A stretch of DNA of 17,458 nt from Candidatus Ratteibacteria bacterium (GTDB lineage Bacteria > Ratteibacteria > UBA8468 > B48-G9 > JAFGKM01). Location of the stretch: the NCBI GenBank assembly GCA_046296715.1, contig JBKBIN010000029.1:1-17458 (forward strand), written 5' to 3'. Shown piece after piece: positions 3,822-17,237 of this stretch (the first letter of the stretch is position 1; each line of letters starts with the position of its first letter). The notes beneath the pieces are model-generated. The model searched no databases and was not told the DNA's origin. It was given only the letters and a program-made list of their open reading frames with translations. The translations under genes were made by a program, and so were the position numbers.

Positions 3822-4388
3822 ATGGCAAGATTAGGCAAAAAACCAATTGATATTCCAGAAGGAGTAAATGTGAAGGTAGAAGATGGTAAGGTTTTTGTTG
3901 AAGGTAAAAAAGGAAAACTTGTTCAAGAGATTTTTCCAAATTTAAATGTGATCGTTGAGGACAAAAAGATATTGGTAAAAAATGAAGCAGATCCGAAAAA
4001 TAAAAAATTATATAGAAAAACAAATGCTCTTTGGGGTCTACTTAGAAGTTTAATTGCTAATATGATAAAAGGTGTAAATGAAGGTTTTGAAAAAATTCTT
4101 GAGATTCATGGAGTTGGATATAAAGGTGATGTAAAAGGTAATAAACTTATTCTTTCAGTTGGTTTTACTCATCCTGTTGAAATAGAAATACCAAAAGAAA
4201 TATCTGTAGAGGTTAGTAAAAATACAATAATATTTATAAGAGGAGCAGATAAACAAAAAGTCGGAGATTTTGCTGCAAGAGTAAGAAGTGTTTGTCCACC
4301 AGAACCATATAAAGGGAAAGGAATTAGGTATAGAGGTGAATATGTAAGACAAAAAGCAACAAAAGCAGGAGTAGAGGCGAAAAAATGA
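3822..4388 (+). CDS. rplF: 50S ribosomal protein L6
   Basis: [20 protein letters not shown] and [12 protein letters not shown] motifs. Confidence 0.99.
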
Positions 4389-4765
4389 AATTAACAAGAA
4401 ATGAAAAAAGGAAAAAAAGACATTTAAGAGTAAGGAAGAAAGTTAAAGGTTGTCCTGAAAGACCAAGGTTATGTGTTTTTAGAAGTCATAAACATATATA
4501 TGCTTCATTAATAGACGATAGTGTCATGCCTAATAGAGTTATTACAACTGTTTCAAGTTTATCATCAGAATTTAGAAAACTCGCTTCAGATAAAAAAATT
4601 CATGGTGGAAATGTAAAAGGAGCAGAAATAGTTGGTCAATTAATCGCAGAAAAAGCAAAATTACTTGGAATAGAAAAAGTAGTTTTTGATAGAGGTGGTT
4701 ATAAATATACAGGTAGAATTAAAGCATTAGCTGAATCTGCAAGAAAAGGAGGTCTAAAATTTTAG
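4385..4765 (+). CDS. rplR: 50S ribosomal protein L18
   Basis: [15 protein letters not shown] and [28 protein letters not shown] motifs. Confidence 0.99.
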
Positions 4766-5238
4766 AAAAGAACAATATTAATGGTGAAAAAATAGAAGAA
4801 AAACAAATTGTAATTGAGATTAGAAGAGTTACAAAAGTTACAAAAGGTGGGAAAAATTTAAGTTTTAGGGCGGTTGTTGTTGTTGGCAATGGACAGGGAA
4901 AAGGTGGCTTTGGAATTGGGAAAGCAAATGAAGTTCCTGAAGCAATAAGAAAAGCAGTTGAGCAAGCAAGGAAAAATATGATAGAAATTCCTTTGAAAGA
5001 TGGAACAATTCCACATGATGTAAAAAGTAAATTTGGTCCTTCAATTGTAATTTTAAAACCTGCTTCTAAAGGACATGGGATGGTTGCAGGAAGAACCGTA
5101 AGAGCTTTATTAGATGTCTGTGGGATAAAAGATATTACATGTAAATGCCTTGGCTCAACAAATCCAATAAATGTTTTATATGCAACAACAAAGGCATTAA
5201 GTAAAATAAAAGTAAGGAGCAAAGAAAATGAAACTTAA
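4759..5238 (+). CDS. rpsE: 30S ribosomal protein S5 (start uncertain; probable non-canonical ATT at 4759)
   Basis: Frame 1 is open from 4735 and reads [66 protein letters not shown]...[11 protein letters not shown]. The ORF track captured only the C-terminal 86 aa from ATG 4978. Identity is certain, the start is inferred. Confidence 0.93.
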
Positions 5239-5686
5239 TCAGTTAAAAGTGCCTTTTGGAGCAAAACATAAAAAGAAACGACTTGGAAGAGGGGATTCTT
5301 CTGGTCATGGTGGAACTTCAACAAGAGGTCATAAAGGACATAAAGCAAGAAGTGGATATAGATTATCATTTAATTTTGAAGGTGGACAAATGCCTTTGTT
5401 TAGAAGATTACCGAAAAGAGGTTTTACACATTTAAAAAAATATAAAATTGAAATAGTGAATTTAAATCAGATTGATAAATTATTCCAAGATGGAGAAGAA
5501 GTTACCATAGAAAAATTGAAAGAAAAATCTCTTATTAAAAAGGGCCAATATGTTAAAATACTTGGTGAAGGAAAATTGACAAAAAAATTAACAATTTATG
5601 CACACCAATTTTCTAAAAAAGCAAAAGAAAAAATAGAAAAAGTAGGAGGTAAAGTTAACATTGTTAAGGTGAAGGAAAATGTTTGA
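5228..5686 (+). CDS. rplO: 50S ribosomal protein L15
   Basis: RLGRGDSSGHGGTSTRGHKGHKARSG, FEGGQMPLFRRLPKRGF and VKILGEG motifs. Confidence 0.99.
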   Translation: MKLNQLKVPFGAKHKKKRLGRGDSSGHGGTSTRGHKGHKARSGYRLSFNFEGGQMPLFRRLPKRGFTHLKKYKIEIVNLNQIDKLFQDGEEVTIEKLKEKSLIKKGQYVKILGEGKLTKKLTIYAHQFSKKAKEKIEKVGGKVNIVKVKENV

Positions 5687-11529: not shown

Positions 11530-11727
11530 ATGGAAAATAGAAATTTAAAAATGCTTGATTTAATTGATAAGAATAAAAATATTTATGAAGTGATAGTTGA
11601 GGTTTCAAGAAGGGCGCATGATTTAATTAAAGGGGCGCTACCTTCTGTAGAAGTTAAAAAAAATGAAAATTTAATACATATTGCAATAGAGGAATATTTA
11701 AGAAAAAATAAGGTGAAAAATGAATGA
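11530..11727 (+). CDS. rpoZ: Probable RNA polymerase subunit omega
   Basis: 65 aa. NIYEVIVEVSRRAHDLIKGALPSV...NLIHIAIEE follows the omega pattern (N/S-x-Y-x-hydrophobic...RA..L..GA.P.V.....A..E). Confidence 0.8.
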   Translation: MENRNLKMLDLIDKNKNIYEVIVEVSRRAHDLIKGALPSVEVKKNENLIHIAIEEYLRKNKVKNE

Positions 11728-12820
11728 TTTTTTTTCTCTTTTAAAATTAATGAAGGAAAAAGATGCATCTGATTTGCATTTGAAATTTGGAAGAAAACCT
11801 ATTTTAAGGATAAAAGGGGAGTTAGTAGAGGTTGAGGAATGGGAAGGGGTGTTAAATGCTGAAGTTCTTTTCAAAATTTTAGATTTAATTATGCCAGAAG
11901 AAGAAAAAGTTAATTTTAAGAAAGAAAAAGAATCAGATTTTGCTTTTGATAACCCAGAAGTTGGCAGATACAGAGTAAATGCTTTCTGGCAGCGTGGTTA
12001 TCCAGGTTTTGTAATGAGAAGAATTAAAGATAAAATACCAACAATTGAAGAACTTAATCTTCCACCTGTTATAAAAAAAATTGCTTTATATAATGATGGT
12101 CTTGTGCTTGTTACAGGACCTACTGGATGTGGTAAATCAACAACTCTTGCTTCTATGATAGAAATAATAAATAATGAGAGAGTTGAGCATATAGTTACTA
12201 TTGAGGATCCTATAGAGTATCTATATACAGATAAAAAGTCAATAATAAACCAAAGAGAAGTTGGGATAGATACACTTTCTTTTGCATCTGCTTTAAAACA
12301 TGTTTTAAGAGAGGACCCAGATATAATTTTAATTGGAGAATTAAGGGATGTGGATACATTTCAGGCAGCAATAAGTGCATGTGAAACAGGTCATCTTGTC
12401 TTCTCAACTTTACACACAATTGATACAATAACAACAATCACAAGAATACTTGATTTCTTTCCTTCAAGTCAACATGAACAGGTGAGGAAGATACTTGCCT
12501 ATCATTTAAGAGCAACAATATGTCAAAAACTTGTTCCGAAAAAAGATGGTAGTGGACTTGTTCCTGTTTGTGAAATTATGATAGTTACACCTGTGATTTC
12601 AAAGTTAATTCAGGATAACAAAATAAATAAACTCTATTCGGCAATGGCTGCTGATAAAGAAGAAGGAATGCTTACATTTAACAAACATCTTGTTCAATTA
12701 ATTCAGAATGATATAATAACTCAAGAAGTTGGTTTTGCTGCCTCTCCTTCTCCTCATACTCTTGAAATGAATTTAAGAGGGATATATCTTGACGAAGAGA
12801 CAAAGATTATTGGAGAATAG
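11720..12820 (+). CDS. pilT: Type IV pilus retraction ATPase, PilT/PilU family
   Basis: ASDLHL, Walker A GPTGCGKST, TIEDPIE (Asp box), NQREVG, LREDPDIILIGELRD (Walker B) and TGHLVFSTLHT (His box). Whether it is PilT proper or a PilU-like paralogue is not resolved. Confidence 0.92.
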   Translation: MNDFFSLLKLMKEKDASDLHLKFGRKPILRIKGELVEVEEWEGVLNAEVLFKILDLIMPEEEKVNFKKEKESDFAFDNPEVGRYRVNAFWQRGYPGFVMRRIKDKIPTIEELNLPPVIKKIALYNDGLVLVTGPTGCGKSTTLASMIEIINNERVEHIVTIEDPIEYLYTDKKSIINQREVGIDTLSFASALKHVLREDPDIILIGELRDVDTFQAAISACETGHLVFSTLHTIDTITTITRILDFFPSSQHEQVRKILAYHLRATICQKLVPKKDGSGLVPVCEIMIVTPVISKLIQDNKINKLYSAMAADKEEGMLTFNKHLVQLIQNDIITQEVGFAASPSPHTLEMNLRGIYLDEETKIIGE

Positions 12821-12854
12821 AGTATAATTTTAATCATCGCTATCCACAATTTAT

Positions 12855-12883
12855 TTTACAAATTTTTACTTCTATAGTAAACT
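12855..12883 (+). promoter_or_regulatory. Candidate sigma70-type promoter for the Cys-rich small gene
   Basis: TTTACA (12855-12860), 17 nt, TAAACT (12878-12883). The AT-rich context lowers specificity. Confidence 0.4.
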
Positions 12884-12912
12884 TAATAAAAAATTTTAAA
12901 GTAGGAGGGGAA

Positions 12913-13128
12913 ATGACTGAATGTTTAAATATTAAAAAGAATTTAAAAGATTGTGGCTGTTCTTATACAAGTTGTTCTAAAAGGGGTATTTGTTGTGAAT
13001 GTTTGAGGTCTCACTGGTCAAGAAAGGAACTTCCAGGATGTCTTTTCCCACCTGATGCTGAAAAAACATATAATAGGTCTCTTGAATATTTTATAAAGGT
13101 CTGGACTGAACGACTTAACTTAAAATAA
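12913..13128 (+). CDS. Small Cys-rich hypothetical protein (DUF6485-like, putative metal-binding)
   Basis: 71 aa with 8 Cys and a His: CGCSYTSCSKRGICCECLRSH...LPGCLFPPDAEKTYNRS. Strong SD AGGAGG. The family assignment is from recall and has not been searched. Confidence 0.8.
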   Translation: MTECLNIKKNLKDCGCSYTSCSKRGICCECLRSHWSRKELPGCLFPPDAEKTYNRSLEYFIKVWTERLNLK

Positions 13129-13136
13129 AGAAATAA

Positions 13137-13175
13137 CTTTTTAATTACCAAAAGGCATTTGAAGTAATTAAAAAG
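13137..13175. repeat. Perfect 12-bp inverted repeat / stem-loop just downstream of the Cys-rich gene
   Basis: CTTTTTAATTAC (13137-13148) and GTAATTAAAAAG (13164-13175) are exact reverse complements. The inner CAAA/TTTG can also pair around AGGCA. Confidence 0.75.
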
Positions 13176-13208
13176 GAGAGATTTTTAAATTTTTCTCATT
13201 GGTTTTAT

Positions 13209-13237
13209 TTGTAAAATTTTAATTTTTTGATTAAAAT
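13209..13237 (+). promoter_or_regulatory. Candidate sigma70-type promoter for purD
   Basis: TTGTAA (13209-13214), 17 nt, TAAAAT (13232-13237), 24 nt upstream of the purD ATG. Confidence 0.4.
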
Positions 13238-13261
13238 TACAATTATAAAAAGTGGGAAAAA

Positions 13262-14509
13262 ATGAGAATTTTAATAATAGGCAGTGGTGGAAGGGAACAT
13301 GCAATTTGCTGGAAAATAAAAAGTTATTCTGAAAATTATGAAATTTTTGCTATCCCTGGTAATGGAGGAATTGCTTTAATGGGAGAATGTATAAAGAAAG
13401 ATTTAGGTAATTTTGATGAGATATTTAAATTTGTTAAAGAAAAAAGAATTGATCTTATAATTGTAGGACCTGAGAATCCACTTTCAGAAGGTATTGTTGA
13501 TTTTTTTGTTGAAAAAGGGATTAAAATTTTTGGTCCAACAAAAAAAGCTGCCCTTCTTGAATCATCTAAGTGTTTTGCTAAGGAATTTATGAAAAAATAT
13601 AATATTCCAACTGCAGATTTTGAGATTTCAGATTCATTTGAAAAAAGTATAAAAATTATTGAAAAAAGAAAAGTCCCTTATGTAATAAAATTTGATGGAC
13701 TTGCTGCTGGGAAAGGAGTTAGAGTTATTGAAGGAAAAGAAGAAGGGAAGAATTATCTTGAGGAAATATTTATTAAAAAAATTTTTAAGGGTGAAAAAAA
13801 AGTTGTAATTGAAGATTGTTTAGTTGGGAAAGAATTATCATACTTGATCTTTACAGATACAAATACTTACATTCCTATGGTTCCAGCAAAAGATTATAAA
13901 AGAGTTTTTGATAATGATAAAGGTCCAAATACAGGAGGAATGGGTTGTTATTCACCACCTTATTATTTTAATGAGGAACTTGAAAATGAAATAAAGAAAA
14001 AGATTGTAGAACCAACATTAAAAGGACTTGAAAAAGAAAATATTGATTATAGAGGTGTCTTATATTTTGGTTTAATGATAACAAATAAAGGTCCTTATGT
14101 TCTTGAATATAATGTAAGATTTGGAGATCCTGAAACACAAGTTATTTTACCAAGGATGGAAGGTGATTTAGTTGAAGTTGTTGAAAGTATAATAGAAGGC
14201 AATTTAAATAAAATAGGTATAAAATGGAAGGAAGAAAAATCATTATGTGTAATTCTTGCTTCAAAAGGTTATCCAGGAGAATATGAAAAAGGTAAAGAGA
14301 TAAAAAATATTGATAGAGTAAAGGATGTGATTTTATTTCATGCTGGAACAAAAATTGAAAATGGTAAAATATTAACAGATGGAGGAAGGGTTTTAGGAAT
14401 TTGTAGTATTGACATAAATTTTGAAAAATTAAGAGAAAAAGTTTATAAAGCAGCAAAAACAATTGATTTTGAAGGAAAACACTACAGGAAAGATATAGGG
14501 TTACTATAG
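13262..14509 (+). CDS. purD: Phosphoribosylamine--glycine ligase (GAR synthetase)
   Basis: GSGGREHA, VGPE, LESSK, DGLAAGKGV, DKGPNTGGMG, EYNVRFGDPETQ, FHAGT and GGRVL motifs. Confidence 0.99.
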   Translation: MRILIIGSGGREHAICWKIKSYSENYEIFAIPGNGGIALMGECIKKDLGNFDEIFKFVKEKRIDLIIVGPENPLSEGIVDFFVEKGIKIFGPTKKAALLESSKCFAKEFMKKYNIPTADFEISDSFEKSIKIIEKRKVPYVIKFDGLAAGKGVRVIEGKEEGKNYLEEIFIKKIFKGEKKVVIEDCLVGKELSYLIFTDTNTYIPMVPAKDYKRVFDNDKGPNTGGMGCYSPPYYFNEELENEIKKKIVEPTLKGLEKENIDYRGVLYFGLMITNKGPYVLEYNVRFGDPETQVILPRMEGDLVEVVESIIEGNLNKIGIKWKEEKSLCVILASKGYPGEYEKGKEIKNIDRVKDVILFHAGTKIENGKILTDGGRVLGICSIDINFEKLREKVYKAAKTIDFEGKHYRKDIGLL

Positions 14510-14527
14510 ATAAAAAAGGAGGTTAAT

Positions 14528-15616
14528 ATGGAAAAAAGATTAAAAGCAGGAATTGTTGGAGCAGGTGGAATTGCTGACTATCATATTTCTGGTTATTTAA
14601 AAAGTGATGTAGAAGTAGTTGCAATAAGTGATATTGACACAGAGAAAGCTCGGATTAAAGCAGAAAAATTTAATATTAAAAATGTTTATTCTTCATACAA
14701 AGAAATGATAGAAAAAGAAGGGTTGGATATTGTCAGTGTTTGTGTTCCGAATAAATATCATGCTGAAATATCAATTGAGTGTTTAAAAAATGGTATAAAT
14801 GTATTTTGTGAAAAACCACCAGCATTAAATGCAAAAGAAACAGAAAAAATGGTTAAAGCAGCAAAAGATGCGAAAAAAATATTAATGTTTGATTTTAATA
14901 ACAGAGCAAGACCTGAAGCACAAGCACTTATGAAATACATTAAAAATGGAGATGTTGGAAAAATAAATTCAGCACAAGCATTATGGATAAGAAGATGTGG
15001 AATCCCAGGATTTGGCGGTTGGTTTACTCAAAAGGCACTTTCTGGTGGTGGACCTGTTATTGATTTGCTTCATATGATAGACCTTGCTTTATATTTTATG
15101 GAATTTCCAGAACCAGAATATGTACTTGCAAAAACATTTTATGATTTTTCAGGTAATCCTGATTTTAAAGGTCCTTGGGGAATACCCGATGTTGAAGGTG
15201 GAATAATGGATGTAGAAACAAGTTCTCATGCTTTCATAACATTTAAAACAGGACAGGTTCTATTTGCGAGAAATAGTTGGGCAGAAATGAATAAAAGAGA
15301 GGAAGTATCTGTTACATTTCAAGGGACAAAAGCAGGAGGAATGATTAGACGCCTTTTCGGGAGGGATGGAATAGATGATACAGCGATTGATGATTGTGAA
15401 CTTTATACTATGGAAAATGGCAAACCAGTAAATAGAAAAATAATAGTTGAACCAGATCCAAAGATGGGAAGAGAAAGGGCAGTAATAAATTTTGTAAATA
15501 CAATTAGAAAAGAAGAAGAGCCATTTTCAAAACCAGAAGAGGCGATAATCTTAATGAAAATAATTGATTCTATATACAAATCATCAGAACAAAATAAACC
15601 AGTTAAAATTGATTAA
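14528..15616 (+). CDS. Gfo/Idh/MocA family NAD(P)-dependent oxidoreductase
   Basis: Rossmann GIVGAGGIA, VCVPNKYH, CEKPPA and GGWFT...SGGGPVIDLLHMID motifs. SD AAGGAGGT. Confidence 0.93.
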   Translation: MEKRLKAGIVGAGGIADYHISGYLKSDVEVVAISDIDTEKARIKAEKFNIKNVYSSYKEMIEKEGLDIVSVCVPNKYHAEISIECLKNGINVFCEKPPALNAKETEKMVKAAKDAKKILMFDFNNRARPEAQALMKYIKNGDVGKINSAQALWIRRCGIPGFGGWFTQKALSGGGPVIDLLHMIDLALYFMEFPEPEYVLAKTFYDFSGNPDFKGPWGIPDVEGGIMDVETSSHAFITFKTGQVLFARNSWAEMNKREEVSVTFQGTKAGGMIRRLFGRDGIDDTAIDDCELYTMENGKPVNRKIIVEPDPKMGRERAVINFVNTIRKEEEPFSKPEEAIILMKIIDSIYKSSEQNKPVKID

Positions 15617-15674
15617 AACTAAACCTTTTTATTGAAAAATTTGTCTAAATTTCTTATAAGGGTAGAATTTATAA

Positions 15675-17237
15675 ATGAAAAAAAAATATTTTTATGTCTT
15701 TGGTTTAATCTTATTGATTTCCTGTAGTCCAAAGTATTATGAAAAATCAGTTGATAAAGAAGTTTTCCAGATAATAGACGAAAAGAAACAAAAAATTAAA
15801 AAAGATAAAATGCCTATAAACCTAAATGAAAATACTGAGAAAGAGACACTTATCTTATCTTTAAAAAACACTTTAATTTTTTCTGCAGAAAAAAACAGGG
15901 ATTATCAGACAGCAAAAGAAAATGTCTATATTTCTGTTTTGGATTTAATTTACCAAAGATATCTTTTTAGACCGAGAGCCACTTTAACAGGTAATATAAA
16001 CTGGTATAAAAATTCTGATGAGAAAATAAGTTCAAATTTAAATCTAAAAATTATTCAAACACTTTCAACAGCAGGTGAAATATCATTAAACATAGGAGAA
16101 GCAATTTTAAAGTATTTAACAGGAGATAAAGAAAAAGCATTTCAATCAATTTTGTCTTTAAATTTATTCCAGCCTCTTTTTAAAGGAACAGGAAGAAAAA
16201 TTGCTCTTGAAAATTTAATCCAAAGCGAGAGAAATGTTGTTTATCAAATAAGAGATTTTTTAAGATATCAAAAAAGTTTTTCAATTGACATCACGAAGGA
16301 CTATTTAAATCTTCTTCTTTATAAAAAAAGGATGGAAAACTATTATGCAAATTACATTAATCTTAAAACAACAAGAGAAAGGATAGAAATGCTTTCTGAT
16401 GCAGGAAGAATAGCACCATTTCAGGTTGACCAGGCAAGGCAGAATGAATATACTGCTTATCAAAGATGGATAGATGCACAAAATCTTTATTTTAGTTCTC
16501 TTGATTCTTTTAAAATTAAACTTGGGCTGTCTCCTTCCTTTAATCTTATTTTAGAGGATAAAGAAATTGAGGAACTTTTTGAAAAACCATTACCTGAAAT
16601 TAAACTTAATTTAACTGAGTATATAGATTATGCTCTCCAAAACCGTCTTGATTTAATAACAGAATATGAAAAAGTTGAGGATTCAAAAAGAAAAGTTGAA
16701 ATTGCTTTAAATAACCTGAAGAATGAGATTGATTTAAGCGTTTCTATAAAAAGTAGAGGAGATGTTAAAGCCAACCCAAATATTGATTTGAATAAACCAG
16801 AATATGATGTAGGGATAGATTTTAACATTCCTTTTAGTAAACTTCCTCAAAGAAATGAATATAAAAAGGCACTTATTCAATATGAAAGGACAAAGAGAAA
16901 CTTTGATAAGAAAATAGATATAGTTAAGAAAGAGATTATTGATAGTTATAGAAAGTTACAGGAGTCATATCAAAGTTATAATATTCAACTTACAAGTTTA
17001 AAACTTGCAGAAAAAAGAGTAGAAAGCACTGATTTATTATTACAGGCAGGAAGAGCAACAATAAGAGACCTTCTTGAAGCCCAAGAAGCATATCTATCAG
17101 CAAAAAATAATGTCATTAATTCAATTACAAGTTTTATTCTTGAATATTTGAATTTCCTTTATATAACAGAAAAACTTGAACTTGATGAAAGAGGAATATG
17201 GAAAGGAGACATAAATGAAATACTTGAAAATATTTAA
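15675..17237 (+). CDS. TolC-family outer-membrane efflux lipoprotein
   Basis: Signal peptide with lipobox LISC (Cys17). Outer-membrane efflux repeat features QPLFKG, ALQNRLDL, LAEKRVE...LLQAGRATIRDLLEAQ. Directly followed by an adaptor gene. Confidence 0.88.
   Translation: MKKKYFYVFGLILLISCSPKYYEKSVDKEVFQIIDEKKQKIKKDKMPINLNENTEKETLILSLKNTLIFSAEKNRDYQTAKENVYISVLDLIYQRYLFRPRATLTGNINWYKNSDEKISSNLNLKIIQTLSTAGEISLNIGEAILKYLTGDKEKAFQSILSLNLFQPLFKGTGRKIALENLIQSERNVVYQIRDFLRYQKSFSIDITKDYLNLLLYKKRMENYYANYINLKTTRERIEMLSDAGRIAPFQVDQARQNEYTAYQRWIDAQNLYFSSLDSFKIKLGLSPSFNLILEDKEIEELFEKPLPEIKLNLTEYIDYALQNRLDLITEYEKVEDSKRKVEIALNNLKNEIDLSVSIKSRGDVKANPNIDLNKPEYDVGIDFNIPFSKLPQRNEYKKALIQYERTKRNFDKKIDIVKKEIIDSYRKLQESYQSYNIQLTSLKLAEKRVESTDLLLQAGRATIRDLLEAQEAYLSAKNNVINSITSFILEYLNFLYITEKLELDERGIWKGDINEILENI

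Follow-up and report, generated by a model that had tools for sequence, protein, structure and literature searches.

How is an essential ribosomal protein made from a gene that has no canonical start codon? This question is raised by rpsE, the gene for ribosomal protein S5 (uS5), in a 17,458-nt stretch of DNA from a Candidatus Ratteibacteria bacterium (GCA_046296715.1, contig JBKBIN010000029.1), here called the window. The window contains the S10-spc-alpha ribosomal cluster of a 1.64 Mb genome with 28% GC, whose close relatives have record titles naming either Candidatus Ratteibacteria or Omnitrophota. A preliminary description of the locus had proposed that S5 synthesis begins at an AUU codon behind a Shine-Dalgarno (SD) sequence embedded in the end of the preceding gene, rplR. 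This proposal is now well supported by comparative evidence, and AUU is very probably the rpsE start codon.

The rplR-rpsE locus

Beginning right after the stop codon TGA at 4732-4734, the S5 frame stays open from 4735 to 5238. Its earliest in-frame ATG, GTG or TTG is the ATG at 4978. The ORF list and the Pfam placement agree that this codon lies in mid-protein, as had been claimed. PF00333 covers residues 16-78 counted from the ATT (Table 1), almost all of them upstream of 4978. Consequently, a start at 4978 would remove nearly all of the S5 N-terminal domain, and the 159-aa size computed earlier for S5 from ATT was confirmed. The protein carries both uS5 domains (PF00333 and PF03719), its gene follows rplR in the spc operon, and the single copy is intact. 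One rpsE match was found in the whole genome and no second rpsE copy with a normal start. When the 335 late-start ORFs of the genome are ranked by the coding score of the part that precedes their first canonical codon, rpsE comes first; the others are mostly antisense-looking frames.

Table 1. Features at the rplR-rpsE junction (window coordinates)
Feature	Position	Strand	Remarks
rplR (uL18)	4385..4765	+	ORF; PF00861, E 1.7e-40
Shine-Dalgarno sequence AAAGGAGGT	4745..4753	+	9-nt match to the genome's own anti-SD
Spacer CTAAA	4754..4758	+	5 nt, A-rich
ATT, proposed rpsE start codon	4759..4761	+	7-nt overlap with rplR
In-frame TTA (4762-4764), rival start	4762..4765	+	8 nt from SD; overlaps rplR stop TAG (4763-4765)
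rpsE (uS5), 159 aa from ATT	4759..5238	+	N-terminal domain 4804-4992; first canonical ATG 4978
Out-of-frame ATG mini-ORF (ATG GTG AAA AAA TAG)	4781..4795	+	chance, unconserved: 1/11 genus members
rplO (uL15)	5228..5686	+	own AAGGAG and ATG; 11-nt overlap with rpsE end

The last codons of rplR, Lys-Gly-Gly-Leu-Lys-Phe-stop, are the source of the SD, the spacer and the proposed rpsE start. The perfect SD core AAGGAGGT lies at 4746-4753 inside the end of rplR, and the anti-SD at the 16S 3' end is canonical (GATCACCTCCTTTCT). The junction site is weakly folded (-5.9 kcal/mol, z 0.79). On re-reading of the sequence, the positions given earlier for the TGA, the SD, the ATT, the TAG, the ATG at 4781 and the A6 run at 4787-4792 were all right. 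What had been overlooked is the in-frame TTA one codon on, which is the main rival start. Two in-frame candidates follow the SD.

The sequence was checked by comparing contigs, not raw reads, from public runs with the window. Run X1 had no differences over 1301 nt; it is not independent because it is possibly the source of the assembly. Run X2, from another study, had 44 substitutions and no gaps, and none of the 32 substitutions listed falls at 4739-4811. From run X3, a 61-nt contig over 4749-4809 was identical. An A7 run at 4787-4792, which had been named as evidence against the AUU start alongside an altered codon at 4759 or 4762, was not seen, and the contigs agree. This confirms that the missing canonical rpsE start is real and not an assembly error.

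Two further observations concern the surroundings. The gene rpmD (uL30) is missing between rpsE and rplO (window 5228-5238), and PF00327 was found in 0 of the 65 phylum genomes searched versus 13 of 14 controls. After rplQ (window 11530-17237), further ORFs follow that we take, by eye, to be RNA polymerase omega, a PilT-type ATPase, a small Cys-rich protein, PurD, a Gfo/Idh/MocA oxidoreductase and a TolC-like protein.

The junction across relatives

The phylum-level set comprises 65 genomes in five families, and families f1-f3 (52 genomes) form the order of the window. Of the 52 order genomes, 50 gave a readable rplR-rpsE junction, as did 9 of 13 outgroup genomes; G030 and G049, whose contigs lack this junction, the fragment G062, and G058, G059 and G064, which gave no S5 match, were left out. 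An ATT is present at the same place in all 50 order genomes and in one of the nine outgroup genomes, counts that come from kin and not from independent samples. Within the genus, all 11 members have the same junction. A canonical start at the aligned position in close relatives, named beforehand as a reason to doubt the AUU start, is not there.

In 30 of the 50 order genomes, the junction is without a canonical codon ("ATT-only"). No canonical codon precedes the conserved core in 21 of these 30, and the other nine have one 6-22 codons downstream, where the SD energy is weak (0 to -5.8 vs about -12 kcal/mol). A few genomes have a GTG inside the S5 core itself. A canonical junction codon, which the preliminary description had missed, occurs in 20 of the 50 relatives. 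In 17 of them it is an ATG two codons further on, within TAATG or TGATG, and six of the 17 have a TTG as well; in the remaining three it is TTG alone. In total, TTG stands at the TTA position in nine genomes.

The distance from the rplR stop to the S5 core ranges from 44 to 68 nt and varies by whole codons only. No stop interrupts the S5 frame in any of the 50 genomes, while the other two frames contain stops in 33/50 and 49/50. This argues that the leader is translated from the junction and that the start lies there.

In outgroup family f4, TGATG is present without this SD (3/3), and f5 has a separate downstream ATG (6/6). Family f4 and genera g3, g5 and g6 have exactly TAATG/TGATG, and other relatives have TTGA. 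A FastTree phylogeny of L6, L18, S5 and L15, with its root on f5 and covering 58 genomes (G061 was omitted here but nowhere else), places the ATG-bearing genera in one clade (support 0.999) nested among ATT-only lineages, in a tree that is built from four short proteins and has some weak nodes (0.60-0.88), deeper ones among them. As one loss and one regain of the ATG are simpler than about five losses, the junction ATG was probably regained in the nested clade. The rplR stop is TAG in 27 of the 30 ATT-only genomes. TAG is the rarest stop in the genome (112/1204).

SD spacing and silent-site conservation

Two kinds of evidence bear on the choice of the codon. The first is spacing. In this genome, a perfect AAGGAGGT precedes 66 canonical starts, with a spacing of 3-7 nt in 65. 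Of these 66 starts, 17 have 5 nt, the spacing of the ATT, one has 8 nt and none has 11 nt; a second count gave a distribution of similar shape.

The second is silent-site conservation in L18. The A of the ATT is the silent third base of the penultimate L18 codon (Lys). This codon is AAA in 49/49 genomes and tops 26 conserved Lys columns (next 0.85), with a background AAA use that ranges from 0.24 to 0.92. The same codon is AAG in all six outgroup genomes with a separate ATG. Similarly, the first Gly codon, which builds the SD, is GGA in 48/50 (0.96) and tops 41 conserved Gly columns (next 0.74). The silent base of the spacer (third base of Leu) is A in 30/30 ATT-only genomes vs 4/17 genomes with a junction ATG, and the T that ends the SD in GGAGGT is present in 25/30 vs 4/17. 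The drop at these silent bases indicates that the constraint relaxes where an ATG is present. In the 17 ATG genomes, the A of the ATT is kept in all and the SD in 16.

No canonical in-frame codon precedes the essential domain, and an AUN codon stands, conserved, at the distance from a strong SD that this genome prefers. In E. coli, initiation is reported to reach 1-2% of AUG with AUU, AUC, AUA and CUG and 0.1-1% with the remaining 57 codons, UUA among them (10.1101/063800).

Chance motifs and gene-specificity

As a control, the SD-ATT-stop pattern upstream of the S5 core was sought in metagenomes. It was found in at least 119 stretches, and 80 of them were examined. Of the 80 loci, 78 have a canonical start before the core, and the ATT lies in the S5 frame in only 20. 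Of the two exceptions, one shares its junction with G035 of this order and the other has a broken frame. The L18 tail GGLKF-stop yields an SD and an ATT in many unrelated bacteria, so that the motif alone is not unusual and was rejected as proof of an AUU start. That a functionless SD and ATT arise at this place in many bacteria counts against AUU; the unusual part is the missing canonical start together with the silent-base conservation.

Among unrelated metagenome loci, L286, L302, L287 and L293 have a junction ATT in the S5 frame, and their first canonical codon is a TTG at the overlap or an ATG eight codons on. These are possible parallel or intermediate states. Acidobacterial rpsE genes (L062-L084, L119) mostly have TTG at the expected start with their own SD before it.

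The non-canonical start is gene-specific, since five neighbour genes start canonically in the relatives: rpsH in 27/27, rplF in 28/28, rplR in 49/49, rplO in 47/47 and secY in 29/29. In the genome as a whole, no excess of SDs 4-5 nt before ATT, ATC or ATA was found. With both results, a lineage-wide relaxed use of start codons was rejected. A scan of 1577 ORFs, limited to ORFs of at least 70 codons that have an SD run of 6 or longer and whose first canonical codon comes 15 or more codons later, and therefore blind to subtler non-canonical starts, returned six SD-led ATT/ATC/ATA candidates: infC (ATC, the positive control), rpsE, a comF-like gene and three likely antisense frames.

The comF-like gene (L164:310-993; G000:C27:14009-14692) encodes a zinc ribbon and a phosphoribosyltransferase. 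In 7 of 10 genus members, it has no ATG, GTG or TTG before the zinc ribbon and an AAGGAG followed by ATT upstream. Other genera have an ATG TCT start; in this genus, that ATG is out of frame, and the region resembles a divergent sigma-70 promoter on the opposite strand. This gene may be a second case of a non-canonical start.

The initiation machinery was examined as well. IF3 is present in 61 of 65 phylum genomes, and infC is on another contig than rpsE. This gene itself appears to start with ATC, ATT or ATA; no canonical codon is found in 13 of 17 parsed loci (17 of 30 could be parsed). In the genome of the window (G000, contig C3, L150), infC has an apparent ATC start behind AAGGAG. By eye, and with positions mapped by motif, we take IF3 to keep the residues that match E. 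coli R25, Q33, R66 and Y75. The S9 tail ends in TKR. The usual bacterial base at tRNA position 33 is U; the initiator tRNA has C33 in 40/40 parsed loci (of 50) and also in outgroups whose rpsE starts with ATG. Its anticodon stem has two or three G-C pairs: in 26/40, A29-U41 replaces the first of three (G29-C41), an exchange that does not track the rpsE start codon. An altered initiation machinery as the cause was rejected, as IF3 is present, the S9 tail is TKR and the tRNA variants do not follow the rpsE start. A further feature of the initiator tRNA (L165:96-167; G000:C28:6895-6966, minus strand) is a U1-A72 pair in most of the order.

A probably trapped start codon

The explanation we regard as likely is an SD-led, rplR-coupled initiation of rpsE at AUU, on a codon trapped by the overlap with L18 and offset by an optimised site. 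Initiator fMet-tRNA would begin uS5 at the AUU (4759) to yield fMet-Leu-Glu-Lys at the N-terminus of the 159-aa protein. The SD would anchor 30S subunits, either fresh or just terminated at the rplR stop 4 nt downstream, in such a way that AUU occupies the P site. The perfect SD, the optimal spacing, the A-rich open spacer and re-initiation may together compensate for the weak codon.

The codon would be trapped because a change from ATT to ATG turns the terminal Phe of L18 into Cys. Two escapes are conceivable: the next codon may become TTG, or a TAATG/TGATG overlap may form. Both have been taken. As to the history, the L18 tail codes for a ready-made SD and ATT; the ancestor of the order may have lost a downstream ATG and then relied on the ATT. 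The overlap with the L18 Phe and the exits already taken favour a tolerated constraint over a selected switch, and with good probability the weak codon reflects constraint rather than selected regulation.

Two observations do not fit smoothly. First, published yields of 1-30% of AUG look low for a protein needed once per ribosome. In E. coli reporters, coupling is reported to double output, and the coupled, SD-led AUU of infC to reach a quarter of its AUG version (PMC3592434). A CAT reporter is described with about 4% for AUU (PMC3643588), and S. aureus AUU/AUA sites with a strong SD with about 10%, one with up to 30% (PMC13009471). An AUU mRNA reportedly competes worst at low temperature (PMC5499595). 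Second, the A of the ATT kept in every ATG genome is unpredicted by a purely trapped codon.

Alternative explanations

This persistence speaks for a rival in which the same AUU start is kept by selection. As in infC, the IF3 level or the IF3:30S ratio and 30S maturity would set S5 synthesis and, via coupling, that of rplO-secY. AUU has been kept across three families despite escape routes, and the SD, too, survives in nearly all ATG genomes (16/17). As IF3 is present in the phylum (61/65) and infC apparently has a non-canonical start, codon discrimination is probably active. Excess IF3 is reported to inhibit non-canonical starts and re-initiation (PMC2268962), and immature 30S subunits to evade IF3 proofreading (PMC6868393). 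An IF3-dependent regulation of rpsE is plausible. However, the 20 of 50 relatives with ATG or TTG at the junction argue against an indispensable regulatory role, and the L18 Phe overlap accounts for the persistence without regulation. Furthermore, more IF3 per 30S would lead to less S5, a positive and not a homeostatic feedback. If the weak codon is mainly a tolerated constraint, any IF3 sensitivity would be a side effect. Altogether, we consider selection for IF3 control unlikely. Even less likely is the extended version in which AUU acts as a selected sensor: 30S-protein synthesis would be placed under start-codon proofreading as a feedback on small-subunit assembly, written into silent L18 positions and possibly tuned by the C33 initiator tRNA. 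If it were true, mature, IF3-loaded 30S subunits would initiate S5 poorly, and IF3-poor or immature ones, arising from S5 shortage, better.

The preferred AUU start also has to be weighed against initiation at the adjacent UUA (4762), as a decayed form of the UUG start of relatives. Nine of the 50 relatives have TTG at this codon, and this is where the database proteins P0040 and P0042 begin, both of which match G020 across 40 residues. In acidobacteria, rpsE reads TTG followed by GAA/GAT AAG, much like TTA GAA AAG here. The Phe codon TTT, needed for TTA/TTG, is kept in 49/50 genomes, and the invariant A is at the same time position -3 of a TTA/TTG start; the A frequency at -3 of starts in this genome is 0.72. 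But the TTT conservation is equalled by two unrelated Phe columns, a spacing of 8 nt is rare for a perfect SD (1/66), and UUA has two mismatches to the initiator anticodon and belongs to the 57 weakest codons. A UUA start is therefore improbable.

Very improbable is a -1 slip at the end of rplR (AAA TTT TAG) that would fuse L18 to S5, or a later near-cognate start, e.g. the ATT at 4777. The S5 frame is indeed -1 relative to rplR, the rarest stop ends rplR in 27 of 30 ATT-only genomes, and NCBI records begin at codons +6, +15, +18 and +20. Programmed -1 frameshifting requires a slippery site X XXY YYZ and an SD 10-14 nt upstream of it. No conserved slippery site with such an SD was found in the junction sequences; the X XXY YYZ motif is absent, and re-pairing of tRNA-Phe on AUU would involve a mismatch. 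It is also implausible that a 50S protein would be covalently joined to a 30S protein. The later codons have weak SD energy and are not conserved. The out-of-frame ATG at 4781, offered earlier as an alternative start that would join the S5 frame by an indel or -1 slippage, was rejected, as it occurs in one of 11 genus members.

Finally, an assembly error or strain-private lesion hiding a true start (ATG 4781 with A7 at 4787, or ATG/TTG at 4759/4762) could be suspected from the homopolymer run and from a check that rests on contigs, but it has next to no probability and is already refuted by the junction conserved across independent genomes (11/11 genus members, with ATG 4781 in 1/11), by the absence of gaps in X1 and X2 and by the identical X3 contig over 4749-4809.

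Relation to known systems

The closest parallels to AUU initiation of rpsE are infC (IF3), with an AUU, AUC or AUA start and translational autoregulation, and E. coli pcnB with an AUU start, as reported in 10.1101/063800, PMC3592434 and PMC5499595. They share an SD-led AUN start that is conserved across a lineage, and E. coli infC is also described as coupled to an upstream stop, 3 nt away. In contrast to infC, rpsE encodes a stoichiometric ribosomal protein and not a proofreading factor, and a feedback on it is hypothetical. In addition, both its SD and its start lie inside the upstream coding sequence (7-nt overlap).

In Deinococcus-Thermus, rpsL (S12) is reported to start with CTG and dnaA with ATC (PMC2830850). 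Like rpsE, rpsL codes for a small-subunit ribosomal protein that is essential, and its non-canonical start is conserved within the lineage; it differs in the codon (CTG) and the gene, and its start is described as peptide-proven, whereas that of rpsE is inferred. The main text of PMC2830850 does not mention rpsE. S. aureus cvfC1 (AUU), ccpN and citZ (AUA) are described as combining a weak AUN codon with a strong conserved SD (PMC13009471). These genes encode regulators and an enzyme with throttled output; S5, in contrast, is needed about once per ribosome. The AUGA and UAAUG/UGAUG termination-reinitiation overlaps, as presented in PMC3592434, resemble the rpsE junction in that the start abuts the upstream stop and the SD is in the upstream gene; here, the overlap is 7 nt and the codon non-canonical. 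The literature searched yielded no paper that describes AUU initiation of rpsE or deals with translation in Ratteibacteria; supplementary start-site tables may contain rpsE cases.

Databases hold S5 forms of 86, 127, 141, 142, 143 and 153 aa for this lineage, and 86, 141, 142 and 153 aa for the window's own cluster. Of the records that were matched to ATT-only genomes, a single one from NCBI (P0010), an automated annotation, begins at the junction ATT. With a weak start codon that lies, together with its SD, inside the preceding gene, rpsE is usually truncated by gene finders. S5 is a phylogenetic marker, and it is called inconsistently in databases for this lineage.

With AUU as its probable start, an essential protein needed once per ribosome would join the short list of AUU-started bacterial genes. 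The case would also illustrate a route by which such starts originate: the conserved L18 tail offers a ready-made SD and ATT, and one order became dependent on them. The genomes with a regained ATG or TTG offer a natural series in which to compare how well a weak codon may be rescued by coupling and a strong SD. The same series bears on whether IF3 still discriminates during re-initiation.
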